The position numbers were made by a program, and so were the translations under genes. Positions 2,109-27,870 of a DNA stretch of 28,538 nt are shown piece by piece; within the stretch, counting starts at the first letter, position 1; each line of letters begins with the position of its first letter. The notes beneath the pieces were generated by a model. The model searched no databases and was not told the DNA's origin. It worked only from the letters and a program-made list of their open reading frames with translations. This DNA is from Candidatus Woesearchaeota archaeon (lineage in GTDB: Archaea; Nanobdellota; Nanobdellia; Woesearchaeales; CAXGTL01), in NCBI GenBank assembly GCA_964012725.1, contig CAXGTL010000013.1, positions 1 to 28,538 of the forward strand, read 5' to 3'.

Positions 2109-3518
2109 ATGAAAAAGATTGTGATACTAATCTTATTATTTGTATTTTTAGTAGGATGTTCTAATATTGATTCTAATGTAATTTTTAATCTGAATGGTAA
2201 TCTTGGGGAAGATAATGTAGATTATATTAATATGCAAGAAAACATAACATACATCAAAGTCTATTTCTGTCCAAGAGACAGATGCAAAGACCACCTAATT
2301 ACATTAATTGAATCTGCAAATAAAAGTGTGCATTGTGGATTGTTTGACTTAGATCTTAAAGATCTGAAACAAACATTTGAAAAAATGTCTTATTTAGTAG
2401 ATACTAGGCTTGTGATAGATGATGAAAACTTTGACCCGTACTTAGCAAAGAAAGAATATGTTAGATGGGATGATACAAGCCAGTTAACTCATAATAAGTT
2501 TTGTATAATTGATAATAAAATAATAAGTACTGGAAGCTTTAATCCAACTCATAGGGGTAATTTTGTTAATAATAATAACTTAGTTATAATTGATTCAAAA
2601 CTGTTGGCAGAGAATTATGAAGCAGAATTTAGAGAGTTGTGGCATTATGAATTTTCTGGCGGAGATAAAGTTTTATATCCTATTATTGAAACTAATTTTG
2701 GTGTAATGGAAAATTACTTTTGTCCAGAAGATCAATGTAAGAATAATGTTGTTCGTGTTCTTGCATCAGCAAATGAATCAATTAAGTTCATGACTTTTTC
2801 ACATACACATGATGATACAGGTGACATTTTAGTTAAAAAACATTTTGCAGGGATTAATGTTCAAGGTGTGTTTGAAAGAACACAAAATAATGCTTGGTGT
2901 GAGTATGAAAGATTAGAAAAATATGATTTAAATATTAAGTGGGATGAAAATAAAGCAAACATGCATCATAAAGTTTTCATAGTCGATGAAAAGATTGTGA
3001 TTACAGGTTCATTTAATCCTTCTTCTAATGGTGATACTAATAATGATGAAAATGTTTTGATTATTTATAATGAAGATATTGCTAAACAATATGTTGAAGA
3101 GTTTGATTATGTATGGTCTTATTCTCCTAATTCTGATTTAGAAGTTAGGAATGTAACAAATTTAGTAATAAAAAAAGTCATGTATGATCCAGTTGGTGCT
3201 GATAAAGGCAACGAGTATGTTGTTTTGTTTAATGTTGGTTCTAATGAAATTGATTTAAGTGAATTTAAATTAGAAGATCATAAAGCTAATTATCAATTCA
3301 GTGGCGTAATTAAACCTGATGAAGAGTTTAAGTATGAAAGTAGTAGATTGTCTTTGAAAAACTCTGAAGGAATGTTATATTTAAAGAATGAATATAATGA
3401 ATTAGTTGATTTTGTTGCATGGGAAGGTTTTGAAGAATGGTCTTTAGAAGATAAAAAGGGCGAAGGTTTAGTTAGAACTAAGTTTGATGTTGTTAATAAT
3501 GAGGGAGAGTGGAAATAA
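2109..3518 (+). CDS. secreted lipoprotein with a duplicated PLD/HKD nuclease-type domain and a C-terminal lamin-tail (LTD) domain
   Basis: Lipobox LVGC after the signal peptide. Two HxK(x4)D motifs (HNKFCIIDNKIISTGSFNP and HHKVFIVDEKIVITGSFNP). The C-terminus (YDPVGADKGNEYVVLFNVGSNEIDLSEFKLED) matches the LTD pattern. Confidence 0.75.
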   Translation: MKKIVILILLFVFLVGCSNIDSNVIFNLNGNLGEDNVDYINMQENITYIKVYFCPRDRCKDHLITLIESANKSVHCGLFDLDLKDLKQTFEKMSYLVDTRLVIDDENFDPYLAKKEYVRWDDTSQLTHNKFCIIDNKIISTGSFNPTHRGNFVNNNNLVIIDSKLLAENYEAEFRELWHYEFSGGDKVLYPIIETNFGVMENYFCPEDQCKNNVVRVLASANESIKFMTFSHTHDDTGDILVKKHFAGINVQGVFERTQNNAWCEYERLEKYDLNIKWDENKANMHHKVFIVDEKIVITGSFNPSSNGDTNNDENVLIIYNEDIAKQYVEEFDYVWSYSPNSDLEVRNVTNLVIKKVMYDPVGADKGNEYVVLFNVGSNEIDLSEFKLEDHKANYQFSGVIKPDEEFKYESSRLSLKNSEGMLYLKNEYNELVDFVAWEGFEEWSLEDKKGEGLVRTKFDVVNNEGEWK

Positions 3519-3535
3519 AGAAAATAAAAAAAAAA

Positions 3536-4705
3536 CTATTCACTCAAACCAGATTCCTTCTTCAAAACTTCAACCTTGTCAGTCTTTTCCCAAGTAAAGT
3601 CTGGATCTTCTCTACCAAAGTGTCCGTATGAAGCAGTCTTTAAGTAAATGGGTCTTCTTAATTGTAGTTGGTTCAAGATATCAGCAGGTTTTAAAGGAAA
3701 GAATCTTCTTACCAATTCTGAAATCTTATCTTCAGGTATTTTATTAGTTCCAAAACAGTTAATATTTACTGAAACAGGTTCTGCAACACCAATTGCGTAT
3801 GCTAATTGGACTTCACACCTATTAGCTAACCCTGCTGCTACAATATTCTTTGCAATGTATCTTGATGCATAAGCAGCACTTCTGTCAACTTTGCTTGGAT
3901 CTTTACCTGAGAATGCTCCACCACCGTGTCTTCCTAAACCACCATATGTGTCAACAATGATTTTTCTACCAGTTAAACCTGCATCTGCATATGGACCGCC
4001 TCTAACAAAAGCTCCAGTCGGGTTTACGTGTAACTTTGTGTTATCATCTATCCAATCTTTACAAATAGGTTTGATTACTTTTTCTATTATACCTGTTTTT
4101 ATTTCTTCATGTTTAACATATCCTTCATGTTGTGTAGAAATAACAACTGCATCAACTCTTAATGGTTTCATATCTTTGTCATATTCAACACTTACTTGTG
4201 ACTTACTATCAGGTCTTAGCCATGTTAATTCTTTTGATTTTCTAATATCTGCTAATCTTTTTACTAATTTATGTGCTAACATTATTGGCAATGGCATTAG
4301 TTCTGGTGTTTCATTACATGCATAACCAAACATCATTCCCTGGTCACCTGCACCTTGTTCTTTGTGCAAACCTTCTCCTTCAGAAACTCCTTGTGCAATG
4401 TCTGGAGATTGTTCTGTTACTTGTGTCCAAACTGAACATGTTTCATATTCTATACCATATTCTGCTTTTGTATAACCAATGTCTTTTATTGTTCTTCTAA
4501 CTATTGCTGTAATATCTACATAACCTTTTGTTGTCATTTCACCAAATACCATTACACCACCATTCTTTGCACCGCACTCAATTGCAACTCTACTCATTGG
4601 ATCTTGTTTTAATGCTTCGTCTAAGATTGCATCACTTATTTGGTCACACATTTTATCCGGATGACCTTCTGACACACTCTCTGATGTTAAAATTAATTTT
4701 TCCAT
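3536..4705 (-). CDS. metK: S-adenosylmethionine synthetase, bacterial/eukaryotic type
   Basis: Full-length MetK signatures: [55 protein letters not shown] Shine-Dalgarno upstream. Confidence 0.95.
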
Positions 4706-4872
4706 TTTATATCACCTCATATTTTAATATATATATTTATATAGCATTTTTTATTCCTGTTTATAAAGATTTGTAGTGTTAAATTGATATGTTAGAATCA
4801 TCATTGGTTTTTTATAATGTCTGTTTCAAAACAATAATAGTTAAATAAGATTAAGATTATCAACAAAATATT

Positions 4873-5127
4873 ATGAAAGAAGAATGTAATGATCTAAAAA
4901 AATTAGAATTAATATGTTTAATGTATAGAGAAGAAAGATGTGAAAGTGTTGAAATAATAAAAAGAGAATTAGCTAATGAAGCAAAATATTTGTGTGAATT
5001 AGAAATATTAAAATATGATAATAAAGATTTATATTTTATGATAACTAATAAAGGTAAAACATATGCTAGAAAAATTAAATTTTTAGGTATGGAAATTTTA
5101 GGATTATTAGAAAGAAAAGAAGAATAA
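4873..5127 (+). CDS. hypothetical small protein (84 aa), possibly winged-helix-like
   Basis: Intact ORF in an otherwise empty interval. Only a weak helix-turn-wing impression (YFMITNKGKTYARKI). Confidence 0.4.
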   Translation: MKEECNDLKKLELICLMYREERCESVEIIKRELANEAKYLCELEILKYDNKDLYFMITNKGKTYARKIKFLGMEILGLLERKEE

Positions 5128-5128
5128 T

Positions 5129-6646
5129 TTAATTTACAACTTCACCAGTCACACTCCTCAACATATGTTTTGTGATTTTTATTTTATAAAACTTGTTCAA
5201 TGGTAATCTTTCTTTAATACCAATCACTAAAGGGTATGTACCTAATTGCCTTGTAAAGGTTGTGTTTCCATCATAGATTTCTGTTTGTACTTGGACTAAG
5301 ATTGTTCCTGTTGGAACTAATCTTTTTAACATCTGAACATCAATGTTTTGTCGAATCTCATTTCTCCATTTCCAGTAATATTTTTTATTTTTTCTAATAG
5401 CTTTATTTTCACCAAAGATTTTTGTCTGAGGAAATTGTGCTACTTGACGAATATTTATTCTTCGTAGTAGCAGATTATTGTCTAGAATCTTTGTCAACCA
5501 CTTCATGTTTTCTTTGTGTGTGTCTTTTGTTTCGCCTATTAAGCCAAATAATAAATTAATTCCAGGCAAAAACTTAGACATTCCGTTTTCACCTTTAACT
5601 ACACCATATTTGTTAATGATTTTTATTGCTTTGTATGTTGTTTCTGGATCAGAATTAAGATTGTTTGCTTTGATAACAGCTTTATCAAAACTTTCTTGTC
5701 CAAGTGCAGCAATATTTCCTTCTGTGCAATACTTAACTACTAATTTTACTTTATTTTCTGTAACATTTGCTGGGTTTATATTATCAATGTGAAGTATTTC
5801 TGAATATTTTGCTGCATTTTTTAATAATTTTTCAATATCTTTTTCAGATCTTGAGAAAAAGTCACTTTGTTTACCAAGTCTGAAGTTTTTTGCACCATGT
5901 TTACTTAATGCCTTGATTTCTGCAATAATATCTTTTGTATCTCTTAGCTCAAACCTATGTTTAACAGGTTCTAAACAGAATGAACAATGATTTTTTCTTG
6001 AACAACCAATTGCTGTTTCAATTTCAAGCATTGCGTTAGGATAAGACGGATGCAAGTTTATTAGTTCTGCACCCAATATTGATAATTTTTGTATTTTTTT
6101 ATAATCAAAAGCTTCTTCATAGTCTTGAAAATCATTTTTTAATAATGTTTTTAGTTTTATTGCCAAGTTTGCTATAGAATAATCAAATCCAGTTTCTATT
6201 TTTGTTTTTCCACCACCATATAAACCAGAACCATAGACAGCTGGACCTGTTAAAATAGTTTTTGGAACAGTTTGTAACTTACTTAATAATGCTTTAACTT
6301 CAGTTGTTGTTCCTGGAATAGCTGATAAATATTTACCTGGTGTGTGTTCACCTGCAATGATTATTAAATAATTAGTTTTTTCAAGAATTTGTCTTATATT
6401 TTTATTATGTTTAGTTAAATTATAAGTTTTTATGTCTGTTTTTATTTGTTTTTCTTTATGAACTTTTTTTTTACCTTCTATTATATGCTTTACATAGAAT
6501 CTTAAATCATCGATTGTGATATATTGATACTTTTGCTTTGCTTGTACTAAAGCTCCAGTTATATATCTAGGATATGTACCTAAGTATGGAGGCACACCTA
6601 ATCCAGATGGTTCATCTGTGTAACAGTCTAATATTGTGAATTGCAT
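5129..6646 (-). CDS. radical SAM enzyme with an N-terminal flavodoxin-like region and a C-terminal TRAM-like tail
   Basis: Cys cluster GCSRKNHCSFCLEP (Cx5Cx2C spacing), followed by GKQSDFF and NPANV type radical-SAM core motifs. Tripartite MiaB-like layout, but without the N-terminal Cys triad. Confidence 0.8.
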   Translation of the reverse strand: MQFTILDCYTDEPSGLGVPPYLGTYPRYITGALVQAKQKYQYITIDDLRFYVKHIIEGKKKVHKEKQIKTDIKTYNLTKHNKNIRQILEKTNYLIIIAGEHTPGKYLSAIPGTTTEVKALLSKLQTVPKTILTGPAVYGSGLYGGGKTKIETGFDYSIANLAIKLKTLLKNDFQDYEEAFDYKKIQKLSILGAELINLHPSYPNAMLEIETAIGCSRKNHCSFCLEPVKHRFELRDTKDIIAEIKALSKHGAKNFRLGKQSDFFSRSEKDIEKLLKNAAKYSEILHIDNINPANVTENKVKLVVKYCTEGNIAALGQESFDKAVIKANNLNSDPETTYKAIKIINKYGVVKGENGMSKFLPGINLLFGLIGETKDTHKENMKWLTKILDNNLLLRRINIRQVAQFPQTKIFGENKAIRKNKKYYWKWRNEIRQNIDVQMLKRLVPTGTILVQVQTEIYDGNTTFTRQLGTYPLVIGIKERLPLNKFYKIKITKHMLRSVTGEVVN

Positions 6647-6730
6647 AATTGTTGTTAAATATGTTTTATATTAAAAAGGTTTGTTTAATTTAGGGATTTT
6701 AAAGAAAGGAATAATATCTAAGTAAAGCTA

Positions 6731-6761
6731 GGGGTGGGTGGTTGGGGGATGGAAAGGTGGG
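6731..6761 (+). other. G-rich tract with G-quadruplex potential
   Basis: GGGGTGGGTGGTTGGGGGATGGAAAGGTGGG in the divergent spacer between the radical SAM and phosphatidyltransferase genes. It stands out sharply from the AT-rich background. Confidence 0.5.
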
Positions 6762-6797
6762 AAATAAAAAGTTTTTTAAACAAATAAAGATAATTTA

Positions 6798-7325
6798 ATG
6801 TATATGAAAAAACTAAACACAGCATTAGCTTTCACATACACAAGAGTAATACTATCATTTGTCATATTAGGTTTATTATTATATGATAATTTTATGTGGG
6901 CTGTTGTTTTGTTCATAATAGCAGGATTAACTGATTATTTTGATGGTTATTTTGCTAGAAAGTTCAACCAAATAACATTCTTTGGTAAAATGGCAGATCC
7001 AAGTGCTGATAAACTACTAATTAATCTAACTGCTTTAGGTTTAGTTATTAAGTTTGGTTTTCCGTTGTGGGCTTTAGGTATATTTTTGTTTAAAGACTTA
7101 GGTATGGTTGCTATGTTTTTCTATGTTAAACTTAAAAAACTTAATAAATATCTTGAAGTGACTATGATTTCAAAGATAACAACAACTATACAAATTGTTT
7201 CAATTATTATTTATTTAATTCCTTTTACAGATATATATTTTATTAAACTAAGTGTTATTGTTATTGCTTGTATATTAACACTCTATACTAGTGTTGATTA
7301 TGTAAAGAGGTTTATGAAAAAATGA
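6798..7325 (+). CDS. CDP-alcohol phosphatidyltransferase family protein (archaetidyl-headgroup synthase type)
   Basis: Perfect D-x2-DG-x2-AR-x8-G-x3-D-x3-D motif (DYFDGYFARKFNQITFFGKMADPSADKL) in a polytopic membrane protein. The start could be the second ATG at 6804. Confidence 0.85.
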   Translation: MYMKKLNTALAFTYTRVILSFVILGLLLYDNFMWAVVLFIIAGLTDYFDGYFARKFNQITFFGKMADPSADKLLINLTALGLVIKFGFPLWALGIFLFKDLGMVAMFFYVKLKKLNKYLEVTMISKITTTIQIVSIIIYLIPFTDIYFIKLSVIVIACILTLYTSVDYVKRFMKK

Positions 7326-8887: not shown

Positions 8888-9051
8888 TTTTCTAATTGTT
8901 CAATTCTTTTCTCTAATTGTCTTACTTTTTGGCATAATTTCTTTTGATTTGTGATTATAATATTAAACCATTCAAAAACATAACTTTTGAAATCCATTAT
9001 ATCCTTTTTTACTTGTTTGAATGAGTTTATTGTGTTTGTTCTAAAAGTCAT
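8884..9051 (-). CDS. small coiled-coil protein (55 aa, hand-called)
   Basis: MTFRTNTINSFKQVKKDIMDFKSYVFEWFNIIITNQKKLCQKVRQLEKRIEQLEK. Translationally coupled to its neighbours. Confidence 0.35.
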   Translation of the reverse strand: MTFRTNTINSFKQVKKDIMDFKSYVFEWFNIIITNQKKLCQKVRQLEKRIEQLEK

Positions 9052-9052
9052 G

Positions 9053-9169
9053 CTAACACCTTTTCTGCTGATTCATTAATAAAAGTGTTTTTTCTACATC
9101 TTTTACAAAGTTCTTGCTTAACAATTCTTTTTGCTCCGCATTCTTTACATTTTCCGTTTTCTGCTATCA
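9053..9169 (-). CDS. tiny Cys-containing ORF (38 aa as read), possibly a frameshifted 4-Cys Zn-ribbon
   Basis: MIAENGKCKECGAKR... A one-base shift at the T5/A5 run (9127-9131) would give CKEC...CKRC and a stop overlapping the next ATG. Confidence 0.25.
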
Positions 9170-9257
9170 TTGTATATTACCTCGTTTAGTTCATTTATTA
9201 ATAGTAAATATTAAATTAGTTTGTTTTATAACTATTTGGTGATGATTTCTACTATAT

Positions 9258-9325
9258 AAAGGTTTCGGAAATTGTTATGCAATTTTAGAAGCCTTTATGC
9301 TCAAAAATCTATGATTTTTGTTGTA
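9258..9325. repeat. intergenic repeat copy D (degenerate double-hairpin module)
   Basis: GTTTCGGAAATTG-ttatg-CAATTT...GCCTTTATGC-TCAAAAATC-tat-GATTTTTG aligns with the hairpin modules of copies B and C. Confidence 0.45.
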
Positions 9326-9432
9326 TAAATGTTTTGGTTTAAGAACTAAAGATTTAACCATTAGAAGAGCTGAAATGCATTAATTCAAGTGTTTAAAGAG
9401 TTTAGAATAAGTGTTTTTAAGGTTGAAATTGC

Positions 9433-11517: not shown

Positions 11518-13488
11518 TCACCTACCCTTCTGAAACTCATACAACCCATTCACTTCTTTCAAAGTTGCAATCTCAGAAATTGGTTTATCATGCCTTAACA
11601 TCATGATTCTTGGGAAACGTAATGCATATCCTGATGAATATGTTGTTGATTTTTGTATTTCTTCATAATTAAGTTCAACAATGATCTCAGGTTTTACTTT
11701 TACTGATTTACCTTTCTCTGATATAATTAATGGTTTTAGTAATTGTGTTAATTCTTCAAATGTAACATCTTCATCTACTTCTTTTTTCTCCTTTATACCA
11801 GTTCCAACCTTACCAATTTCTAGAATATTTCCATCTTTATCTTGACATGCAAGAATAAAGCTAGCTAACCATTTAGAACGTTTACCTTCGCCCCAGATTG
11901 CACCAACAATAACTAAATCTAATTCTTTCATAACAGGTTTTACTTTCATTCCATAGCCAACTCTTGCTCCTGGTTTGTAAGGTGCATCTAGTTTTTTAGC
12001 CATAACACCTTCTTCACCTACTTTCAAAGCTTCATCGTAGAATGCTTGAGCTTTTTTCAAATCAGATGTTATTAATTGTTTTGCAATATTAATCTTATGT
12101 TTGGTTGGCTTAACTATATGTTCAATATGTTTTCTTCTTTTTTCAAAATCTTCTGTAAGAAGTGATTTTCTATTTAATTCTAAAATATCAAACACATGAA
12201 ATGTAACTGGAACTTTTTTAATTATTTCATCAATATTATGTTTTCTTTTTATTCTTTGAGATATTTTTTGGAAAGGTAAATATTTTTTAGTCTTAGGATC
12301 TATACCAAGAACTTCACCATCTATGATAAAGTCTTTTGATTTTACATTGGTTTTAATTATTTCAACAATGTCTGGGAATTGTTTAGTAACATTTTCTAAT
12401 CTTCGTGTGAATAAAATAATTTTGTCTTTATTCCTATGAACCAAAAGTCTGAATCCATCATATTTATATTCAAATGCACATGGTTTTCCTAACTTATCAA
12501 ACGCATCTTCTAAATCCAATGCTTTTGGAAACAACATTACTTTTACAGGATTTCCTGGTGTTAATGATAAGTTTTTTAATCCGTTTATTCCTTTTTCTTT
12601 TGCAAGCTTTGTAACAATTGCTAAGTCATTTGTTAAATCAATTGCATGCTGTACTTTTTCTGTTAAAGAATTATATATTTCCCTTGCAATCTTTTCATCA
12701 GGAGCTTGTATTAGTTCATATTTAGATAAATTGTTCTTGTTTAATTGTTTTGGATCATTTATTTTTAGAACTGATAGTTTTTTATGTTCATATTTCTCTT
12801 TTATATTTAATTCTTTATCACAACTTAAACAATTCTTTGTTTTTGGAACAAATTGTTTACAATGTTCACAATAAAAGAAAACTTTTTCTACAGGAGGGAA
12901 AAAAGCCCAAACAATTGCATCCCTTAAACTACCTTCACCAACACCAATCCTCATTTCTTCTGTAATTGTTCTTACAATATACTTTGCTTCATCAGGTTTT
13001 GCACTTGTAAGTAATTCTGATATTAGTTTTAGTTTAATATCTTGTGAACCAGTGCCTGTGATTGTTGATAATTTCTTTATATTGTTAAAAACTTTTTTAA
13101 TTGTTAAGTTTGTTGAAAAAAGTGTAGCTTGTTTCTTTTTCTTTGTTAAAGATTCAGCAACATTACCAATACCACCTAGTTTTTTCCATTCTTTGATGAT
13201 TTTGTCTTGAGTTATGCCAGTTGCAATGTTAAGTGCTTTTGCAACTAGTTTTGATGAAACACCTATCTTTGTCTGGTCATAGGATGGAAAAACTTTGCCT
13301 TGCAATAATAACATGATGATGTCTAAGTCTTCGGTTTTTGTTTTCTTTAGAAACTCAGCTATGTAGTAAGTCTTGTTTAGCCTCTTTGATGTTGAGTCTA
13401 GTTTTTCATAGAGTTCGACTAGGTGAGAGTATTGCATGTATGGAAATAAGCAGGTTTTGTTTATATATTTTGTGTATTTAAGTTCCAT
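11518..13488 (-). CDS. lig: ATP-dependent DNA ligase with a Zn-ribbon insertion in the DNA-binding domain
   Basis: Adenylation motif AFEYKYDGFR plus EGVMAK and the OB-fold motifs LRFPR. The typical ligase N-terminus begins at M18 (MQYSHLVELYEKL, ATG at 13437), with a TATA-like box about 27 nt upstream. The true start may therefore be 13437. Confidence 0.92.
   Translation of the reverse strand: MELKYTKYINKTCLFPYMQYSHLVELYEKLDSTSKRLNKTYYIAEFLKKTKTEDLDIIMLLLQGKVFPSYDQTKIGVSSKLVAKALNIATGITQDKIIKEWKKLGGIGNVAESLTKKKKQATLFSTNLTIKKVFNNIKKLSTITGTGSQDIKLKLISELLTSAKPDEAKYIVRTITEEMRIGVGEGSLRDAIVWAFFPPVEKVFFYCEHCKQFVPKTKNCLSCDKELNIKEKYEHKKLSVLKINDPKQLNKNNLSKYELIQAPDEKIAREIYNSLTEKVQHAIDLTNDLAIVTKLAKEKGINGLKNLSLTPGNPVKVMLFPKALDLEDAFDKLGKPCAFEYKYDGFRLLVHRNKDKIILFTRRLENVTKQFPDIVEIIKTNVKSKDFIIDGEVLGIDPKTKKYLPFQKISQRIKRKHNIDEIIKKVPVTFHVFDILELNRKSLLTEDFEKRRKHIEHIVKPTKHKINIAKQLITSDLKKAQAFYDEALKVGEEGVMAKKLDAPYKPGARVGYGMKVKPVMKELDLVIVGAIWGEGKRSKWLASFILACQDKDGNILEIGKVGTGIKEKKEVDEDVTFEELTQLLKPLIISEKGKSVKVKPEIIVELNYEEIQKSTTYSSGYALRFPRIMMLRHDKPISEIATLKEVNGLYEFQKGR
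13459..13470 (-). promoter_or_regulatory. TATA-like box for lig (leaderless from M18)
   Basis: AAATATATAAAC on the minus strand, centred ~27 nt upstream of the ATG at 13437. Confidence 0.4.
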
Positions 13489-13660
13489 CCAAAAATCCTA
13501 TTCCGCTTTCTCGCTTTACTCAAAAGCTTCATCTGGCCATGCCATCAATTTCTTTGAAATTAATGACATTGAAGGCACAGACGAATGTTTTGAATGGAGT
13601 TATTCATTCCGAAACATATATATACCACTAAACTAATGAATATATAACTAATATATAATT
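13489..13660. repeat. intergenic repeat copy A (lig / AI-2E transporter spacer)
   Basis: Shares with copy B, in the same order: AAAAATCCTA-YTYCG...TTTACTCA, CTGGCCATGCCAT, a variable hairpin, GCACAG..G.AT.TTTTGAATG.AG and CTAAACTAA...ATATA.AACTAATA. Confidence 0.65.
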
Positions 13661-14729: not shown

Positions 14730-15452
14730 ATGAAAAGCACAAAAACAACATTATTAATAATAAGTTTACTACAATTACTCTGTTTTACAAATTCTTCATG
14801 TAGTTCAAAAACATCATCATCTCAAATACCTACAATAGAAAAATCTTCAGTTATAGATAATAATATAACAAATCCATCAACTTTAAAGAATAATGAAAGT
14901 GTATTAGAAAAAATAATAGAACCTTATTCACAAGATTCAAAATTAATCTTAATAGGTGCTAAAAAATGTGCTCAAAATAAAACTAATTATACAACTGGAT
15001 ATTTTAAGATAAATTATCCAATGGGGGATATACCAAGTGACAAAGGTGTATGTACAGATGTTATTGTTCGTTCTTTTAGAAATGCTGGGTATGATTTACA
15101 AGAATTAATTCATGAAGATATGAAAATAAATTTTCATCAATATCCTAATATTTGGGGACATAAAAAACCTGATTCAAATATAGATCATAGAAGAATACCT
15201 AACATTGTTACTTTTTTAAAAAAATATGGATCAAATCTAACTAAAGAAATTAATAAAAAAACACTTAATCAATGGCAACCAGGTGACATTGTTGTATGGA
15301 AACTTCCAAATGGATTAAAACATATAGGAATTATATCAGATAAACTTAATTCAAAAGAAGTACCATATGTAATTCATAATTTAGGATATACATCAGAAGA
15401 AAATGTTTTACAATTATGGGAAATAACAGGACATTATAGATATTGTAAATGA
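14730..15452 (+). CDS. secreted DUF1287-family protein (NlpC/P60-like fold)
   Basis: Signal peptide with Cys. Core GVCTDVIVRSFRNAGYDLQELIHEDM...PDSNIDHRRIPN...WQPGDIVVW...HIGIISD...VIHN...GHYRY is collinear with DUF1287. Confidence 0.75.
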   Translation: MKSTKTTLLIISLLQLLCFTNSSCSSKTSSSQIPTIEKSSVIDNNITNPSTLKNNESVLEKIIEPYSQDSKLILIGAKKCAQNKTNYTTGYFKINYPMGDIPSDKGVCTDVIVRSFRNAGYDLQELIHEDMKINFHQYPNIWGHKKPDSNIDHRRIPNIVTFLKKYGSNLTKEINKKTLNQWQPGDIVVWKLPNGLKHIGIISDKLNSKEVPYVIHNLGYTSEENVLQLWEITGHYRYCK

Positions 15453-17723
15453 TTAAGGAATAGTTGATGCTAATTCAATTGTTTCATCAACTGGGAAATC
15501 TGCATAACCTTTAACAACATACCACCTACCTGTAGAAGAATAACCCATTCCTTCTTTTCTAAATTTAACATAATCTTCTAAATCAACTTCCCAGATTCCA
15601 GTATAAGGAATATTTTTCCCATCAACTGTTTTGTATGTACCTGTAGCCATATAAACACTCTTAACACTGTTATCAGGATTTACAGATGCTATAACAGCTG
15701 AATGATAATCAGATCTAAAGTCTCCTTCTTTTCTTACTTGAGTCATTGCTTCTTCTTGTGTTAATTCTCCCCTTTCTACAGATTGCCAAGGATAATACTT
15801 ATATGCATCAAAAAAAATCATTTGACCAGGTTTAGGAGGATTATTGTTATCATTTGGTTTAAATAATAAATTTTTTTGTTTAAAATATGAAACCATATTA
15901 CGATTTCTTTGCAAAAAATTAGGGTTATTAGGATTATTTCCACCACTAGTTTGGTATTTAACACTTCCATCATAATAAGATTCAACCATATCTTTATTTA
16001 ATGTTGAACCTGCAAGTTCTGAAGAAATTTTTCCAACACTATTACAAACTACTTGATCACCAACATAACAAGCATACTCTGATCCTTCATCAAGATCACT
16101 TACTCTTTTTGATAACACAGGGGATTTAAGCCACCATAAAGTCCTATCACGTAATTCTTGTTGATTTTTTGCTGGTAATATATTTTGTGATGTAAATCCA
16201 AATCCATATTTATAAACATCAGGTGTTCTCTTATTATCTATCATATCAAACTCATAAGTACCAGTACTAGTTTCAAATTTCATTTTCATTCCAATAGCAT
16301 CCCTCTCAGCAATTTTACGATCAGTAACTGAAATTATACTATCAAAAACATTATGGCCATCAGAACCAAATCTCCAATGAGAATTCTCTATTTCACCTGG
16401 ACCTTCAATAGATGTTAAAGGTATGTCCTCTGTTGTATCAAATGTAATTGTACCACCAACTGGTCTCATAGTAAAATAATCTAAATCATTAATCCTTTTT
16501 CCGTATCTTGGATCTTTTTTTTTCATTACTCTAAAACTCTCAAAATCTACATACTTATTTCCATTTTTTAGTGTTACCTTATGTCCTAAACCATTAAGAA
16601 TCATTTTCTTATTACCATACCAAACATAATCTTCATTTTTATGATTATCTTTGTCAAAATCTTCTCCAAAATAGATGTCCACATCTTGCTGGGCATTAAT
16701 CAAAATATTATTTATTGTTGTATCACCTTGAATTAAGAATTGTCCATTATTATAATCTAAGTATCCCTCGTTTAAAACATCATTACTAGGAAGACTAACA
16801 TCAATATTGTCTGAAATAATTGTCAATTTATATTCTGATTCAAGATTTGTAATCTTTGTTTTCTCAAGTATATGAATATAATTCTCATAATATTCATAAG
16901 ATGTTGGTTTTGAGAATTTAATACCAAGTACATTTTCAGAAACACCTTTAACAATTTGTCCATCAAAGATTACTTCACCACTTCCATGAAAATTAATTTC
17001 TTCTATAGAAATATAATCTCCTTTTAAAATCATTTCATTTTCAAAAAATTTAACTTTTCCTTTAAAAGTGAATCCTCCCATTTCAAACCTTCCATTAGAT
17101 AAAGTTGTAACTTTAATATCCTTAGGAAGAGTTTTAAGATTTATTAAACAACATTTACCATTTTGAAATATATTTGTTTCTTGATAATATTTAGCATCTG
17201 ATACGATATTTTCTAAATCAAAAGTTATAGTATCTGATAAACCTTGTTTAAGTACAATTACTAAAGAATCTTTACTTAAATAATCATATTTTCCATCTAA
17301 TAAATCAAGGTTATCAAGAATATCGTTATGATTAAGATAAGATAATTGTTCATCTTCAAGTTTAGGTATGATTATATCTTTGGGAGTTACACCTGAAAAA
17401 TGATTTTCATCCAAAGCTTTTATTTGGTCATCTGACAATGCTGTGCCCATTTCCACCATTTCATCTAAAGGAATTGAATTTATTTTTTCTGGTGCTATTT
17501 CAGTTATTTTATATGGAAATCTTTGTGTTAATTCATACCAATTAATATAACTATATTTATCAACAGGCACTTTATTAAAATCTATTTTTTCATAATAATT
17601 AATAAGTACATTATTCCAATTATCAACTTTAGCATAATCCTCACCTGTCCATTGTTCTATAGCAAAGATAGTTGTAGCTAATAAAATGATTATAATAATC
17701 CAAGATATAATTTTATGTTTCAT
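15453..17723 (-). CDS. large secreted/anchored surface protein (756 aa) with a C-terminal papain/NlpC-P60-like region
   Basis: N-terminal TM/signal segment, a beta-rich middle, and a C-terminus with VCNSVG...PKPGQMIFFD...DYHSAVIASV resembling a Cys...His hydrolase core. ATGA overlap with the upstream gene. Confidence 0.65.
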   Translation of the reverse strand: MKHKIISWIIIIILLATTIFAIEQWTGEDYAKVDNWNNVLINYYEKIDFNKVPVDKYSYINWYELTQRFPYKITEIAPEKINSIPLDEMVEMGTALSDDQIKALDENHFSGVTPKDIIIPKLEDEQLSYLNHNDILDNLDLLDGKYDYLSKDSLVIVLKQGLSDTITFDLENIVSDAKYYQETNIFQNGKCCLINLKTLPKDIKVTTLSNGRFEMGGFTFKGKVKFFENEMILKGDYISIEEINFHGSGEVIFDGQIVKGVSENVLGIKFSKPTSYEYYENYIHILEKTKITNLESEYKLTIISDNIDVSLPSNDVLNEGYLDYNNGQFLIQGDTTINNILINAQQDVDIYFGEDFDKDNHKNEDYVWYGNKKMILNGLGHKVTLKNGNKYVDFESFRVMKKKDPRYGKRINDLDYFTMRPVGGTITFDTTEDIPLTSIEGPGEIENSHWRFGSDGHNVFDSIISVTDRKIAERDAIGMKMKFETSTGTYEFDMIDNKRTPDVYKYGFGFTSQNILPAKNQQELRDRTLWWLKSPVLSKRVSDLDEGSEYACYVGDQVVCNSVGKISSELAGSTLNKDMVESYYDGSVKYQTSGGNNPNNPNFLQRNRNMVSYFKQKNLLFKPNDNNNPPKPGQMIFFDAYKYYPWQSVERGELTQEEAMTQVRKEGDFRSDYHSAVIASVNPDNSVKSVYMATGTYKTVDGKNIPYTGIWEVDLEDYVKFRKEGMGYSSTGRWYVVKGYADFPVDETIELASTIP

Positions 17724-18484
17724 TTTAAATCATATTTATTTGCAAATACAAACCTATAAGGCATGTCTAAAACTATTGATTTATCATCAATTATAACAAA
17801 ATAAATTGTGTCTCCAAAATTAATTTTTTCAATAGAAAATAGTGTATCATCAGTAATTTTAGAAATACAAGAGATACATACCACATTAGGATATAATAAT
17901 TGTTCTTTAATCATTTTATTAGATGTTTCATAAATTAATTTAAGTCTTACAGGATATTCTTGAGTAAACTTAGAAATAATCCTTTTTTGTTGACCTTTGT
18001 TTAAAGTTAAAGGATAATTTATGTCTACTTGTACAACATTGTCCTTGACCATAGTTTCTGATATAATTGGAGATTGCATTATTTCTACTCCTGAATCTTT
18101 AAATTCAGAAAAATTATTAATACAATTAGGTAAATTATGAGAAACATAATTTGAAATTTCATCTTCTATAACAGATAATTGTGGTATTTTATTTTCACCT
18201 TCATAATAAAAATATGCTGTACTTGAAAAAAGAAACGAATCAGCAGCTAATGGAGGGTCTGATGTATAACCACCTCTTACTCCTATTGTATAGACTGCTT
18301 TTTCAATTGTATTTTTTAAACATGAATCTACAAATAAATTTATAGATGTTAGTTCTGGTATAAGGTCTGTTGATGATTGTTCTATGGTTGGTTGTGAATT
18401 CATCAAATAATAAAATATCATAAAACAAATTACAAGAATAAATCCCATAACAATATAAATAGTTAATTGTGCTCTTTTTTTCAT
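17720..18484 (-). CDS. protein with an archaeal class III (type IV pilin-like) signal peptide (254 aa)
   Basis: MKKRAQLTIYIVMGFILV fits the [KR][GA]-Q/L-hydrophobic prepilin-peptidase site pattern. The rest has no recognised family. Confidence 0.55.
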   Translation of the reverse strand: MKKRAQLTIYIVMGFILVICFMIFYYLMNSQPTIEQSSTDLIPELTSINLFVDSCLKNTIEKAVYTIGVRGGYTSDPPLAADSFLFSSTAYFYYEGENKIPQLSVIEDEISNYVSHNLPNCINNFSEFKDSGVEIMQSPIISETMVKDNVVQVDINYPLTLNKGQQKRIISKFTQEYPVRLKLIYETSNKMIKEQLLYPNVVCISCISKITDDTLFSIEKINFGDTIYFVIIDDKSIVLDMPYRFVFANKYDLK

Positions 18485-18542
18485 TATTAATTTAATTTAT
18501 AATAATTATATATATAAAACTAACTAATAAATAGACCAAAAG

Positions 18543-18552
18543 CTTTAAAAAT
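18543..18552 (+). promoter_or_regulatory. TATA-like box for RNase P RNA
   Basis: CTTTAAAAAT centred ~25 nt upstream of the predicted 5' end of P1. Confidence 0.4.
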
Positions 18553-18572
18553 CAAGATTATTACCTATATAC

Positions 18573-18915
18573 TAACGTAGGGAACTGCTTAACTGACGGC
18601 ACCATGTGCTGAAGAAAGTCCATCCACTGCTGGCAGAGTTTTTATATGAAAACTTATGTCTTAAAATGCTACTCTAGGAATAGAGATCCTTAATAGGATG
18701 GTAAAGGCTCAGAAACGATATCCCTATCTGTTAGCTATGATGTGGCGAAGTACTGGGTGACTTGTATGAGATCCCACAGAGTGTTTGAGCAGATAGGAAG
18801 ATTGAAACGGTGATTCCTTAGCAAGTGAAAGTTCAGTATGAACGAATAGTAGAATGTTAAGATGGTCTGTCCTAACGGAGACCAATAAAAGGTGGCTTAT
18901 AGGTTTCCTACGTTA
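18573..18915 (+). ncRNA. rnpB: RNase P RNA
   Basis: CR-I-like GAAGAAAGTCC (18611-18621), TGAAACGGTG, and CR-V-like ACCAATAAAAGGTGGCTTAT (to 18900). The 5' TAACGTAGG pairs with the 3' CCTACGTTA as P1. Locally GC-enriched island with a TATA-like box ~25 nt upstream and an oligo-T tract downstream. Confidence 0.8.
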
Positions 18916-18930
18916 CTTTATTTTTATCTT
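18916..18930 (+). terminator. oligo-T tract after RNase P RNA
   Basis: CTTTATTTTTATCTT lies immediately after the P1 3' strand, as expected for an archaeal oligo-T terminator. Confidence 0.4.
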
Positions 18931-19200
18931 CATCTAAAAATCCTACTTCGTTTTACTCATTTCATTCGTAAAACTACGCCTGGCCATGCCATGTTTGCCA
19001 AACAAACATAGGCATACACGTGTCGGAAATGCAGAGCATTTCTGAGCATGATCAGAAATTTCCAATTTCTGACAGCACAGGAGGATATTTTGAATGAAGC
19101 TAAACTAACAGTTAAATATATAAACTAATAAAAAAATACATATTAACATGGTTAGAAATCTCTGATTTATAACCAACGAACGAAACGGAGTGAAGTGAAA
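18931..19200. repeat. intergenic repeat copy B (composite, with inverted ends and four hairpins)
   Basis: Inverted arms at 18946-18972 and 19176-19200. CTGGCCATGCCAT box at 18980-18992. Hairpins at 18986-19015, 19026-19042, 19052-19072 and 19150-19174. Confidence 0.7.
19112..19125 (+). promoter_or_regulatory. TATA-like box for the secG/hel308 transcript
   Basis: TTAAATATATAAAC. The predicted TSS is near 19148, which places hairpin 19150-19174 and the leader motif in the 5' UTR. Confidence 0.4.
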
Positions 19201-19218
19201 TTGTCAAAAGATAATAAA

Positions 19219-19380
19219 ATGAGAATGCCATCAGGCATGGGTGGACTAGTAAGGTATTTTGATGATTATAAATCAAAGATAGAGTTCAAACCTCAGCATG
19301 TTATTATATTAGTGATCATTGTTTTAATTATTGAAATTATATTACATCTTTATGGTTATTCTTGGTTTGGCTTTTCATAA
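19219..19380 (+). CDS. secG: preprotein translocase subunit Sec61-beta (archaeal SecG)
   Basis: MPSGMGGLVRYFDDYKSKIEFKPQHVIILVIIVLIIEIIL matches the archaeal Sec-beta pattern (aGLvRYfde...kp.hVi + TM). The ORF-track start at 19195 is a GTG inside the repeat, so I prefer the ATG at 19219. Confidence 0.82.
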   Translation: MRMPSGMGGLVRYFDDYKSKIEFKPQHVIILVIIVLIIEIILHLYGYSWFGFS

Positions 19381-19382
19381 TT

Positions 19383-20966
19383 ATGACTCAAATAGCAACT
19401 GTAACAAATAATTATGTAATTGATTTAGCATTAAATACAATTTCTATTGGAAAGCAAGCTTTAGTTTTTGTTAATTCTAAAAGAAGTGCTGAAAAAACTG
19501 CTGAAGACCTTTCCCGTCAAATAAAGAATGTTGTTTTGAATGATTTAAGTGAAAAAATGTTACATGCTTTACCAAAGCCAACTAAACAATGCGAAAGATT
19601 GAGTAAATGTATTAAAAATGGAATTGCATTTCATCATGCAGGCCTTGTTCATAAGCAAAAGGAAATGATTGAAGATGAATTTAGAAGTGGTAAGATAAAA
19701 GTTATTTGTTGTACACCAACACTTGCAGCTGGTGTTGATTTACCTGCTTTTCGTACTATAATAAAAGATTTAAGAAGATATAGTTCTCGTGGATTAAACT
19801 GGATACCTGTTTTAGAATATGAACAACAAGCTGGTAGAGCTGGTCGTCCTAGTTATGATGATTATGGAGAAGCTATATGTATTGCTGTTACTGATTCTTC
19901 TAGAAAAGAAATTGTTAAAAGATATATTAATGGAGAAGTTGAAGAAATTTATTCTAAGCTAGCTGTTGAGCCTGTACTTCGTACTTATGTTTTGTCTTTA
20001 ATTGCATCTGGTTTTATTACTTCTAGAAATGATTTGATTGATTTTTTTTCTAAAACATTTTATGCTTATCAGTTTAAGGATATGGATAAAATAAAATCAA
20101 TCATGGATAAAATGATTCATCTTTTGACTAAGTTTGAGTTTATTATGAAAATTAACCACACAGAAGATGATGATTCTAAGAATAATGAATTTACTTCTGC
20201 AAATAAATTAGATGAAGATAATAAAAACATTAATTACAAAGCAACAATAATAGGAAAAAGAGTTGCACAGCTTTACATTGATCCATTAACAGCTAATTAT
20301 TTAATCAAACATGTTAAATTAGTTAATATAAAGAATGAAATAAGTTTTTTACAATTAATATCTCATACTTCTGAGATTCGGCCTTTGTTAAAAGTTCGGA
20401 ATAAAGATATGGAAGATGTGAATGAGTTCTTGTTAAGGCATAATGTTTTTATTTTAGAAAAAGAACCAGAAATATATGATTCTGAGTATGATGAGTTTTT
20501 GTCTTCAATTAAAACTTCAATGTTTTTCTATGACTGGATAAATGAAAAAGATGAAGAGTTTCTTTTAGATAAATATAATACTAGGCCAGGTGAGATAAAA
20601 GTTAAATTAGATATTGCTGATTGGTTACTTTATTCAACTGAGGAATTGTGTAAGCTTTTGAAGATGCATTCTGTTGTAAAAGAGATTATGAAATTAAGAA
20701 TAAGATTGCAGTTTGGAGTTAGAGAAGAATTACTTGGTTTACTTAGGTTAAAGAATATTGGGAGGGTTCGTGCGCGTAAGTTACATTATAATAAAATAAA
20801 AACAATTGAAGATGTTAAGAAATGTGATTTATTGAAATTAGTACAGATTCTTGGTAAGAAGACTGCAATTGATGTCAAGGAACAGGTTGGTATCAAAGTG
20901 GATGCAAGTAAAATTATAGTCAAAAAGAATAAAAGAAAAGGTCAGATTAGTTTGTTGGATTATTGA
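19383..20966 (+). CDS. hel308: Hel308/Ski2-type helicase, C-terminal part only (RecA2, winged helix, ratchet and HhH domains)
   Basis: Begins just before the RecA2 strand (KQALVFVNSKRSAEKTA). Motifs IV-VI are present (CCTPTLAAGVDLPA, QQAGRAGRP), as is a C-terminal HhH-like region. No Walker A or DEAH-box region occurs upstream in any frame. Confidence 0.8.
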   Translation: MTQIATVTNNYVIDLALNTISIGKQALVFVNSKRSAEKTAEDLSRQIKNVVLNDLSEKMLHALPKPTKQCERLSKCIKNGIAFHHAGLVHKQKEMIEDEFRSGKIKVICCTPTLAAGVDLPAFRTIIKDLRRYSSRGLNWIPVLEYEQQAGRAGRPSYDDYGEAICIAVTDSSRKEIVKRYINGEVEEIYSKLAVEPVLRTYVLSLIASGFITSRNDLIDFFSKTFYAYQFKDMDKIKSIMDKMIHLLTKFEFIMKINHTEDDDSKNNEFTSANKLDEDNKNINYKATIIGKRVAQLYIDPLTANYLIKHVKLVNIKNEISFLQLISHTSEIRPLLKVRNKDMEDVNEFLLRHNVFILEKEPEIYDSEYDEFLSSIKTSMFFYDWINEKDEEFLLDKYNTRPGEIKVKLDIADWLLYSTEELCKLLKMHSVVKEIMKLRIRLQFGVREELLGLLRLKNIGRVRARKLHYNKIKTIEDVKKCDLLKLVQILGKKTAIDVKEQVGIKVDASKIIVKKNKRKGQISLLDY

Positions 20967-22638: not shown

Positions 22639-22643
22639 TTTGT

Positions 22644-22698
22644 GTCACCTTTTTGTAGATGTGGCAGTTAGGGAAAAAGAGGTGACTCAAACCCTAAC
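22644..22698 (-). promoter_or_regulatory. Shine-Dalgarno-sequestering stem-loop / H-type pseudoknot candidate in the dnaK-dnaJ spacer
   Basis: The minus-strand RNA reads GUUAGGG-uuuga-GUCACCUCUUUUU-CCCUAAC-ugccacaucuac-AAAAAGGUGAC-acaaa-AUG. The AGGUGA Shine-Dalgarno is fully paired in an 11-bp stem with one bulged C. Confidence 0.5.
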
Positions 22699-22728
22699 CA
22701 ACACATCTTATTTTGAAAATATAAAAAA

Positions 22729-25618: not shown

Positions 25619-26026
25619 ATGTTCATGAAGATAAGCAAAATAACAATAACAAGGCTGAGAAAGCCGAAATCTCATAATATTAATCAAGAGCTTCAGTGGT
25701 TTGGTAATTCTTTAGGTTTATTTGGATTGCGTGATAAAGATAAATCTTGTTTTAGAATCTTTATTGAGCTGTTGAAATCAACAAAAGCTGGCGAAGGTAT
25801 GTCAAGTGATGAAATTGCATTTAAATTAAGTCTTAGTCGAGGCACTGTAGTACATCATTTGAACAAGCTAATGGAGTCAGGTATTATTATTCATAGAAAA
25901 AATAAGTATTTCATGAGAGTTGACAATCTTAAAGAATTGATCAAAGTTCTAAAGTCTGATATTGAAAAGTCATTCAAAGATCTTGAAGAAATGGCTAATG
26001 AAATTGATAGTGTTCTTGGGCTTTAA
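25619..26026 (+). CDS. winged helix-turn-helix transcription regulator (ArsR/TrmB-like), divergent from grpE
   Basis: FRIFIELLKS...MSSDEIAFKLSLSRGTVVHHLNKLMESGIIIHRKNKYFM is a classic wHTH with wing. The C-terminal part is helical. Confidence 0.75.
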   Translation: MFMKISKITITRLRKPKSHNINQELQWFGNSLGLFGLRDKDKSCFRIFIELLKSTKAGEGMSSDEIAFKLSLSRGTVVHHLNKLMESGIIIHRKNKYFMRVDNLKELIKVLKSDIEKSFKDLEEMANEIDSVLGL

Positions 26027-27787: not shown

Positions 27788-27870
27788 ACTCACTTCACCT
27801 TGCTCCGTTCGTATGTCATAAATGCAAAGCATTTATGAGCATGATCAAGAATCTTTGATTCTTGACAGAT
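27788..27870. repeat. intergenic repeat copy C (leader plus double hairpin upstream of the GT4 gene)
   Basis: CACTTCACCTTGCTCCGTTCGT, then CATAAATGC-aaa-GCATTTATG, GAGCATGATCA, then TCAAGAATC-ttt-GATTCTTGA-CAG. Matches modules of copy B. Confidence 0.7.

Follow-up and report, generated by a model that had tools for sequence, protein, structure and literature searches.

Small dispersed repeats, among them a twin-hairpin family of DPANN archaea, probably nest around an ancestral secG promoter in a woesearchaeal genome

The spacer between the RNase P RNA gene and secG on a 28,538-nt contig of a Candidatus Woesearchaeota archaeon (CAXGTL010000013.1 of assembly GCA_964012725.1; the whole contig is called the window below) is probably a nest of three small non-coding dispersed repeats around an intact ancestral secG promoter. 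One of the three, a pair of adjacent short hairpins that we call the twin hairpin, belongs to what is, judged from its sequence, a high-copy family across DPANN archaea, and one that is apparently undescribed. We read the elements as non-autonomous repeats that act as DNA hairpins and resemble repetitive extragenic palindromes (REPs), miniature transposable elements with inverted repeats (MITEs) and Rickettsia palindromic elements (RPEs), and put the joint probability of this whole explanation at roughly 0.68. A sequence-only reading of the region had described it as a single hairpin-rich element of about 270 bp. Repeats are located without strand unless one is given, and L numbers denote the contigs and metagenome-assembled genomes (MAGs) used for comparison.

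The RNase P RNA gene on the left of the spacer (18577–18911, plus strand) matches RF00373 of Rfam over its full length with 98.3 bits. The gene on the right is secG, encoding Sec61beta (19201–19380, plus strand; Pfam Sec61_beta, 1.9e-11), whose N-terminal KDNKMRMPSG is kept as in relatives. Searches with the neighbouring helicase identified the MAGs L007, L008 and L010 as the closest relatives (81–83% amino acid identity), followed by Woesearchaeota/Nanoarchaeota MAGs at about 55%; this places the source among marine DPANN archaea of the Woesearchaeota kind. In L007, L008 and L010 the RNase P–secG spacer is about 55 nt long, and the window spacer, described before as long, is indeed abnormal for this lineage. 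The relatives' spacer consists of a T-rich trailer, a TATA-like GTTAAATATATAA and, about 26 nt further, the secG ATG, a geometry from which we infer a leaderless or nearly leaderless secG mRNA.

The same ancestral parts are present in the window. The T-rich RNase P RNA trailer, GTTACTTTATTTTTAT, occupies 18912–18927 (plus strand), and the secG promoter and start occupy 19110–19151 (plus strand), with a TATA-like TTAAATATATA at 19113–19123 and ATGG at 19148–19151. The 26 nt at 19110–19135 are 92% identical to L007 5777–5802 and to L010 3886–3911; the remainder was aligned by eye with L007, L008 and L010, and the segment is a putative promoter on this likeness. In the three relatives the trailer stands directly before the secG promoter. 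In the window a 182-nt insertion, B(i) (18928–19109), lies between the two; it is absent from all three relatives, where the empty site reads TTTTATA/GTTAAAT (strokes mark junctions here and below). A second insertion of 53 nt, B(ii) (19152–19204, plus strand), follows the ancestral start, and the relatives read ATGGCAAAAGATAAT without it. The region is invariant among the near-identical strain contigs L001–L006. In the proposed course of events, B(i) would have landed downstream of the RNase P RNA terminator and upstream of the secG TATA box, and B(ii) just after the original, nearly leaderless secG start codon.

The left two-thirds of B(i) resembles 13479–13608 of the window (copy A) and segments on five marine contigs. 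An alignment of nine copies (A1: B(i), copy A, L310, L320, L350, two from L359 and two from L370) runs end to end from TTCATCCAAAAATCC.. to ..GGATATTTTGAATGAAG between unrelated flanking genes, and describes a host element of about 115 nt with imperfect inverted ends of about 18 bp. In B(i) the conservation begins with the left inverted end CTTCATCTAAAAATCCTAC (18928–18946), whose reverse complement GTAGGATTTTTAGATGAAG matches the right end, and in A1 the right inverted end is GAGGATATTTTGAATGAAG (19081–19099). The ends are conserved and inverted across A1; in single copies their score is reached by 43–59 of 1000 shuffles. The interior contains a TTACTCAYT..TTCGT motif, an invariant CTGGCC box and a hairpin of copy-specific sequence. 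In B(i) the motif lies at 18945–18972, is the left arm of the sequence-only reading, and is also found in L359, L318, L370 and at copy C of the window. The CTGGCCATGCCAT box and the variable hairpin ATGCCATGTTTG/CAAACATaGGCAT span 18980–19015; the box is exact in seven copies, and the hairpin varies in sequence while keeping its fold.

Copy A lies between the divergent promoters of a ligase gene and an AI-2E transporter gene and has no twin hairpin. Its empty site in L007 reads TTTTGTGTATT/CCGAAACATAT, and L010 and L008 agree; the window spacer holds 130 extra bases exactly between the two core promoters. Both the CTGGCC box and the left arm recur here (13489–13545, the arm motifs at 13489–13530), with a second exact copy of CTGGCCATGCCAT at 13533; two matches to CTGGCCATGCCAT were obtained in 3 of 100 shuffles. 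Six of the nine host-element copies carry a twin hairpin and three, including copy A, do not. Where present, the twin-hairpin block sits between ..ACG and GCACAGACGG, and the junction shows no duplication, GACATTGAAG/GCACAG without the block against GACATTGACG[TGTC..GACA]GCACAG with it. No autonomous insertion sequence (IS) sharing the host-element ends was found in about 1 Mb of compared sequence, and a blastn search with 18928–19204 gave no match in plasmid and phage collections.

Copy A also touches a gene call. The 656-aa DNA ligase open reading frame (ORF; 11518–13488, minus strand) takes its start ATG from the inverted end of copy A, the ligase has 639 aa in relatives and in some gene calls, and a TATA-like box lies within the extra 17 codons, so that the 656-aa call is probably an insertion artefact. 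Alignments with the relatives' ligases begin at residue 18 (residue 9 in L008), and the fusion of ligase and copy A is therefore probably incidental. The outward-facing ATGs of the inverted ends were considered as portable start codons and rejected, since only the ligase-side copy is in frame with a long ORF.

The twin hairpin nested in B(i) is a 54-nt TGTC..GACA module (19021–19074; 73.8 bits against model R1) made up of hairpin 1 (19023–19045), the linker GCATGA (19046–19051) and hairpin 2 (19052–19072). A second module, copy C, lies at 27814–27867 (79 bits against R1). The blocks 19021–19075 and 27814–27868 share 78% identity with compensatory changes in both stems (repeat family D3), in line with the earlier claim that modules of the spacer recur at other loci of the window. 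A single family hairpin, TCAAAAATCtatGATTTTTG (9301–9321), gives a partial R1 match (18.6 bits, E 0.16). It lies in a non-coding stretch of about 480 nt (8955–9432) that is unusually long for this genome and has no Rfam match at gathering thresholds.

Outside the window, a third twin-hairpin copy of the same genome was found at 4524–4593 of L380, making three copies in 47 kb. On L380, the same contig about 6 kb past the right end of the window, a very AT-rich island of about 2.3 kb (2300–4660) encodes a 206-aa tyrosine recombinase (Phage_integrase) with long non-coding flanks and ends at a triple-hairpin family copy (4500–4593); the island may be an integrated element.

To collect further copies, a metagenome collection was scanned with TGANCANGATCANNAATNNNNNATTNNTGAC, a pattern with 20 defined bases and no constraint on the stem-variable positions. 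The scan returned 86 stretches, which were parsed into 64 distinct modules. The same pattern had no match among the 2.9 million viral contigs of IMG/VR, where patterns of 14–15 bases gave at least 120 matches, attributable to chance; the 9 and 5 stretches returned by 16- and 18-base patterns were likewise taken for chance. R1 adds copies missed by the exact pattern, including four in 460 nt of L364, four in 11 kb of L340, and one in the Woesearchaeota MAG L013. The carrier contigs are archaeal, range from 26 to 50% GC and come from groundwater, peat, sediment and ocean; by eye, we take some of their proteins to be a proteasome alpha subunit, a CDC48-type ATPase and a deoxyhypusine synthase. 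Further copies, proposed as a check of the sequence-only reading, thus exist on many archaeal metagenome contigs and in relatives, and its statement that the motif matched nothing recognisable stands: the module has no match to any Rfam family, and we found no description in the literature searched. In one groundwater or sediment lineage (L364 3470–3760, L307, L317, L338, L340, L357) the twin hairpin has a third long hairpin fused to it, and this composite, TTCAAACTGG-CGCAGCAAGCTGCG-..-CCAGTTTGAA, of about 125 nt, occurs in many copies and in tandem arrays.

The consensus of the 64 modules is (A)TG-[TCA rr AA .. TT yy TGA]-K-CAYG-A-[TCA nn AAT y nnn r ATT nn TGA]-CA(T). The modules are 47–70 nt long and end in a 5-bp TGTCA/TGACA; TGTCA is preceded by A in 38 of 64, with no fixed tetranucleotide evident. 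Hairpin 1 varies from 17 to 41 nt among the modules, and R1 matches extend up to 157 nt, which suggests that hairpin 1 sometimes holds further insertions.

Covariation was assessed in an alignment of 29 twin hairpins, with column shuffles as a control. Paired cells make up 97% of the stem cells, against 87% in the shuffles. Changes on both sides of a pair number 68 against 16.8 expected, a count equalled in none of 500 shuffles, and ten pairs show compensatory change, providing the covariation support that had been sought. When the partners were slid by one to three columns, paired cells fell to 31–46%. Independently, RNAalifold predicts two hairpins that are each two pairs longer and interrupted by one bulged base; the arrangement is two-fold pseudo-symmetric about CAYG. 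The linker Y covaries strictly with the second base 3' of hairpin 2, outside the obvious stems (UA in 20 sequences, CG in 8).

The pairs themselves point to the type of constraint. An RNA helix normally tolerates more G·U pairs than were found here. Counted over the 64 modules, the pairs of hairpin 2 comprise 571 Watson-Crick, no G·T and 5 mismatched, and those of hairpin 1 comprise 601 Watson-Crick, 12 G·T and 21 mismatched; in both together, G·T accounts for 12 and mismatches for 26 of 1210 pairs. Many hairpin-2 positions are fixed by the search pattern, and among those left free G·T is not more frequent than other mismatches. By a rough estimate, a G·T share of about one-third of the non-Watson-Crick pairs is about the share expected of neutral single mutations. 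As G·T shows no excess over other mismatches, the constraint looks like DNA self-complementarity, and the twin hairpin would act at the DNA level, as a hairpin of single-stranded or extruded DNA, rather than as RNA.

The copies occupy diverse sites. Those in intergenic regions lie between divergent (11), tandem (7 and 6) and convergent (5) genes, with no strand preference, and about a dozen lie inside long ORFs. Among ORFs of more than 200 codons, 8 of 9 copies use the sole stop-free frame, which reads (M)SE..SEHDQKSxISD, with a hairpin 1 of 3n+2 nt; this pattern reflects survivorship, as the screen sees only copies that leave the frame open. Judged from their frames, the copies in coding sequences are probably translated. 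A concatenated 75-aa peptide query of the protein database returned one weak match.

Essential RNA genes are also occupied. In L008 a full twin hairpin (3570–3632) lies in the loop of a peripheral helix of the RNase P RNA, which scores 103 bits; the module stands in place of the loop of a hairpin whose window sequence is CTCTaggaatAGAG (18674–18687), and the closing stem is compensated to CTCAC/GTGAG. In the Woesearchaeota MAG L015 (2191–2530), single family hairpins lie in the introns of two adjacent tRNA genes with anticodons GTT and GAT, and the second has a further family hairpin in a T-arm intron; the orthologous tRNAs of L011, L013 and L014 have none. ARAGORN called none of the intron-bearing tRNAs of L015, which were found by Rfam. 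In L010 a degenerate module directly follows the ATG of an ArsR-family gene whose orthologue in the window (25619) is uninterrupted. Presence/absence polymorphism relative to relatives, a further check proposed earlier, was thus found at the following orthologous sites: the RNase P–secG spacer, the ligase/AI-2E spacer, the L008 RNase P RNA, the L010 ArsR-family gene start and the L015 tRNA introns.

B(ii) consists of a family hairpin, TTAGAAATCtctGATTTATAA (full stem 19150–19174), in which the basal pair has changed, with compensation, from C-G to T-A and one internal pair is mismatched, and a purine-rich arm, ACGAACGAAACGGAGTGAAGTGAAATTG (19176–19200). The arm contains a Shine-Dalgarno-like GGAGTGA (19187–19193) 7 nt before the TTG at 19201. 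It recurs on the minus strand at 27790–27812, within the homologous arm ACGAACGGAGCAAGGTGAAGTGAGTATG (27788–27812, minus strand), which places AGGTGA 7 nt before the ATG of a glycosyltransferase gene (27787). The pattern ACGAACG-N7-GTGAAGTGA occurs at only these two arms in all compared sequence, and other gene starts of the window commonly have GGTGA 5–7 nt ahead of the ATG. From its sequence context the secG start is probably TTG 19201 (or ATG 19219). Transcription of secG would still begin near 19145–19150, the old secG ATG would now open a five-codon mini-ORF (ATG GTT AGA AAT CTC TGA), and translation from TTG 19201 would give MSKDNKMRMPSG, compared with MAKDNKMRMPSG in L010. A leaderless secG would in this way have turned into a leadered one with a Shine-Dalgarno sequence brought in by the element, an effect on translation predicted from the arrangement of these signals. 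The suggestion of a portable 5' UTR cassette thus applies to the 53-nt piece 19152–19204.

Among known systems, the twin hairpin most resembles several classes of non-autonomous repeats. REPs, with the related bacterial interspersed mosaic elements (BIMEs) and REPINs, are short bulged palindromes without coding capacity that form hairpins in single-stranded DNA, occur as doublets and clusters, and are mobilised in trans by a REP-associated tyrosine transposase (RAYT) (PMC3733652). The twin hairpin shares with them its short imperfect palindromes of about 20–40 nt, the doublets and clusters, the high copy number, the bulges and the lack of coding function. It differs in that its two hairpins stand in direct order around CAYG instead of forming an inverted pair that folds into one long hairpin, in that it is not confined to extragenic DNA, and in its archaeal hosts; no RAYT flanked by twin hairpins was found on the carrier contigs.

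RPEs also occur in RNA genes. Like them, the twin hairpin is palindromic, sits in frame in unrelated genes where it would encode a hydrophilic peptide, and is found in RNA genes as well; unlike them, it is 47–70 nt long instead of about 100–150 bp, occurs in many DPANN lineages and not in Rickettsia only, and shows no sequence similarity. In-frame insertion of RPEs into unrelated protein genes has been described (PMC10969869). The palindrome-associated transposable elements (PATEs) derived from IS200/IS605 offer a further likeness, in that the two similar hairpins recall the left and right ends of a transposon, the one readable nested twin-hairpin insertion lacks a target duplication, and at least one carrier genome has an IS200-like Y1 gene. 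Known PATEs are far longer than the twin hairpin, however, whose hairpins abut the termini with no conserved 4–5-nt target evident, and the only IS200-like element seen has hairpins of the CCCTGCCCTAAAGGGCAGGG type and not of the twin-hairpin type.

The host element of about 115 nt is closer to MITEs such as Sulfolobus SM and Neisseria Correia elements: it is small, non-coding and dispersed, has inverted ends, is polymorphic for insertion, serves as a landing pad for other elements and can alter the expression signals of its neighbours. It differs from them in having no demonstrable target duplication or known autonomous partner, and in ends that are weak in each copy. A 2024 review lists archaeal MITEs in Sulfolobus, Halobacterium, Haloquadratum and Desulfurococcus, not in DPANN (PMC10969869), and a preprint survey places 'a Woesearchaea' among the highest archaeal MITE densities, with no family described (10.1101/2024.01.18.576219).

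In the proposed mechanism, a protein acting in trans would recognise the two pseudo-symmetric bulged hairpins and spread or maintain the twin hairpin. The best candidate would be a dimeric HUH/Y1 transposase of the IS200/IS605-RAYT kind, as for REPs, REPINs and IS200/IS605-derived palindromic elements. This type of enzyme was chosen because bulged pseudo-symmetric hairpins, the lack of target duplication and the DNA-type constraint all fit it, and we hold this step with modest confidence. A crude motif screen identified a Y1_Tnp gene (Pfam, 6e-27) about 120 nt from a three-module array, on one side only, in L307 and L371. It belongs to an IS200-like element of about 600 bp (L307 7420–8020; the same element in L371) that encodes a 135-aa Y1 transposase and lies in a non-coding island of 1.7 kb. 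HUH enzymes therefore exist in carrier genomes, and a link to the twin hairpin is at most suggested. The window itself contains no transposase, as had been stated. Recurrent gene families next to the elements reach at most 5 loci each and are all housekeeping; a recurrent 136-aa neighbour was considered as a transposase and rejected, since by eye it resembles an acidic ribosomal stalk protein.

Several points weigh against reading the elements as mobilised DNA hairpins. The whole evidence base is sequence. In about 480 kb of carrier contigs, with 767 ORFs clustered all-against-all, no enzyme was linked to the elements, and the Y1 transposase of L307 and L371 is bracketed by GC-rich hairpins of its own (CCCTGCCCTAAAGGGCAGGG) that bear no relation to the twin-hairpin family. 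The GTAG/CGTC tag of REPs is absent, the twin hairpin being flanked by (A)TG and CA(T). Taken one copy at a time, the host element's inverted ends score barely above chance (about 5% of shuffles). Target-site duplications, which had been proposed as a check, are absent or ambiguous, with at most a 3-nt ATT at copy A and none at B(i) or at the nested twin hairpin. Finally, at the N-terminus of deoxyhypusine synthase in L294, L296 and L363, the in-frame twin hairpin is 98–100% identical (47–48 of 48 nt), compared with 75–77% over the next 600 coding bases and about 60% over the 60 bases upstream in the same three genomes. This degree of identity exceeds what neutral decay of a dead insertion would leave and points to selection in place or gene conversion, neither of which would be expected of a purely selfish element, and it speaks against plain junk DNA.

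It is this conservation in deoxyhypusine synthase that keeps alive the strongest alternative, to which we give about one chance in five: that the twin hairpin is a signal maintained by its hosts, an RNA or DNA binding site for a conserved DPANN protein that acts in transcript stability or processing or in chromosome handling, with dispersal as a secondary matter. With similarly limited credence, the signal could be a selected two-fold-symmetric one, recognised by a dimeric protein (perhaps a domesticated HUH enzyme, a structure-specific nuclease or a binder) and working wherever it is located. The stem sequence is deeply conserved across contigs of 26–50% GC from groundwater to ocean, the single-base bulges and the covarying stem extension (UA:20, CG:8) are conserved as well, and perfectly palindromic stems give the same helix from either strand, so that an RNA role is compatible with the absence of orientation bias. 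A host signal fits less well with the lack of a consistent position relative to genes, the unconserved loops, the range of hairpin 1 (17–41 nt, with matches up to 157 nt), the absence of any preference for G·U pairs, the lack of copies in close relatives at four orthologous sites, and the dense tandem clusters of some genomes. If the signal reading were true, the conservation of the deoxyhypusine synthase copy, against a coding divergence of about 24%, would reflect function and not recent insertion.

The remaining alternatives are far less probable than a host signal. The first, very unlikely, is the view that the two arms bound one unit, 18931–19200, which would be either a composite MITE or a structured small RNA gene. 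The features on which it was built were all found within 1 nt: the right arm is exact at 19176–19200, the CTGGCCATGCCAT box is exact at 18980–18992, the left arm is present but starts at 18945 and not 18946, and all four stem-loops appear in the predicted fold, three of them also being listed by a repeat finder. The arms pair in the plus-strand minimum-free-energy fold, and the 274 nt of 18931–19204 fold at -70.8 kcal/mol compared with -44.4 ± 4.1 for dinucleotide shuffles (z = -6.4; -4.5 for the minus strand). The ancestral secG promoter and start codon (19110–19151), however, lie between the arms, and the left part recurs without the right at 13479–13608 and on five other contigs. The left arm falls in B(i) and the right in B(ii), and the arms are thus not the ends of one unit. 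Their local alignment score of 11 (7.7 ± 1.6 in shuffles) is reached by 53 of 1000 shuffles, marginal when taken alone, and the pairing is meaningful only because the TTACTCAYT..TTCGT motif recurs in related elements. An Rfam 15 scan of 18400–19500 (E ≤ 10) returned RNase P and two chance-level matches only. Of the three interpretations offered for the single element, the MITE-like one came closest, without the unit of about 270 bp; a small RNA gene finds no support, given the inconsistent orientation and context of the copies, the lack of a G·U excess, and the copies within coding sequences.

Specific RNA classes were also considered and rejected. For 5S and SRP RNA there was no Rfam signal. 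CUGA and AUGAUCA-like strings recall a C/D-box sRNA, but many copies have UUGA for CUGA and there is no terminal C box. An ACA follows the first hairpin as in an H/ACA sRNA, but no pocket or K-turn is seen and the ACA is unconserved in the family alignment.

Equally improbable is a transcription-factor reading, in which a dimeric regulator of secG and other genes would bind the hairpins as double-stranded operator palindromes. In its favour, the half-site TCAGAAAT stays constant around 3–5 variable central bases, several copies lie near promoters, and an ArsR-type regulator is encoded in the window (25619–26026). Nevertheless, where the stems vary, the two arms change in concert (GA/TC, AA/TT, AG/CT, TG/CA, TA/TA), which the reading of fixed bases by a protein does not need; the variable length of hairpin 1 (17–41 nt) argues against a fixed-geometry duplex binding site; and copies lie in coding sequences, tRNA introns, RNase P RNA and convergent intergenic regions.

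We give just as little weight to archaeal bulge-helix-bulge introns, cut by the tRNA splicing endonuclease from any transcript, even though copies lie in tRNA introns, RNase P RNA and coding sequences and the module is two-fold pseudo-symmetric, with two bulges flanking the 4-nt core CAYG. Judged by eye and without a dedicated motif search, the predicted bulges are 1 nt long and on the same strand instead of 3 nt long, on opposite strands and 4 bp apart, and the L015 hairpins are contained in larger introns whose splice sites they do not make up. That 8 of 9 long-ORF copies keep a stop-free frame, as expected if they are translated, is a weak argument against splicing, as the screen sees open frames only. 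Integron attC sites were rejected since copies occur in either orientation and inside genes with no cassette array, though there is a tyrosine recombinase about 6 kb past the end of the window.

The window is AT-rich (28% GC), and marine (Tara Oceans) metagenomes hold contigs identical to it, the longest of 121 kb. Between the AI-2E transporter gene and the RNase P RNA, 14730–18484 carries a DUF1287 gene and two genes for proteins of 756 and 254 aa, both without a Pfam domain; in L007, L008 and L010 the transporter gene abuts the RNase P RNA directly, and this 3.8-kb stretch is a lineage-specific insertion or rearrangement. On the other side, the helicase beside secG (19383–20966, plus strand) represents only the C-terminal half of a Hel308/Ski2-type protein (Helicase_C, domain 4, HhH). 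The N-terminal RecA1/DEAD domain is missing from it, and likewise in L007. In L008 and L010 (about 4100–7260) the alignment to the window protein restarts at residue 115 after about 1.5 kb, a stretch that reads by eye as what we presume to be an intein or homing endonuclease (LLKGLFDTDG). The helicase gene could thus be split or truncated; its exact ORF with a TTG start has no record in the database. Downstream of the dnaK stop, a GC-richer spacer (22639–22728) contains a long imperfect palindrome, AGATGTGgcaGTTAGGG ... CCCTAACcaaCACATCT, with no relation to the hairpin family.

DPANN genomes are tiny and tightly packed, and their mobile DNA is little characterised. A family that persists in essential RNAs (RNase P RNA and tRNA introns) and in protein genes would be a parallel to the Rickettsia palindromic elements in another domain of life. 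The repeats also call for care in annotation: they create spurious N-terminal extensions, as in the 656-aa versus 639-aa ligase, inflate structured-RNA signals, and may break assemblies. Insertions of this kind may turn leaderless genes into Shine-Dalgarno-led ones, and the secG locus presents the ancestral and the derived state side by side. The strict Watson-Crick symmetry of the twin hairpin, together with its conservation in place, points to a protein that recognises hairpins.

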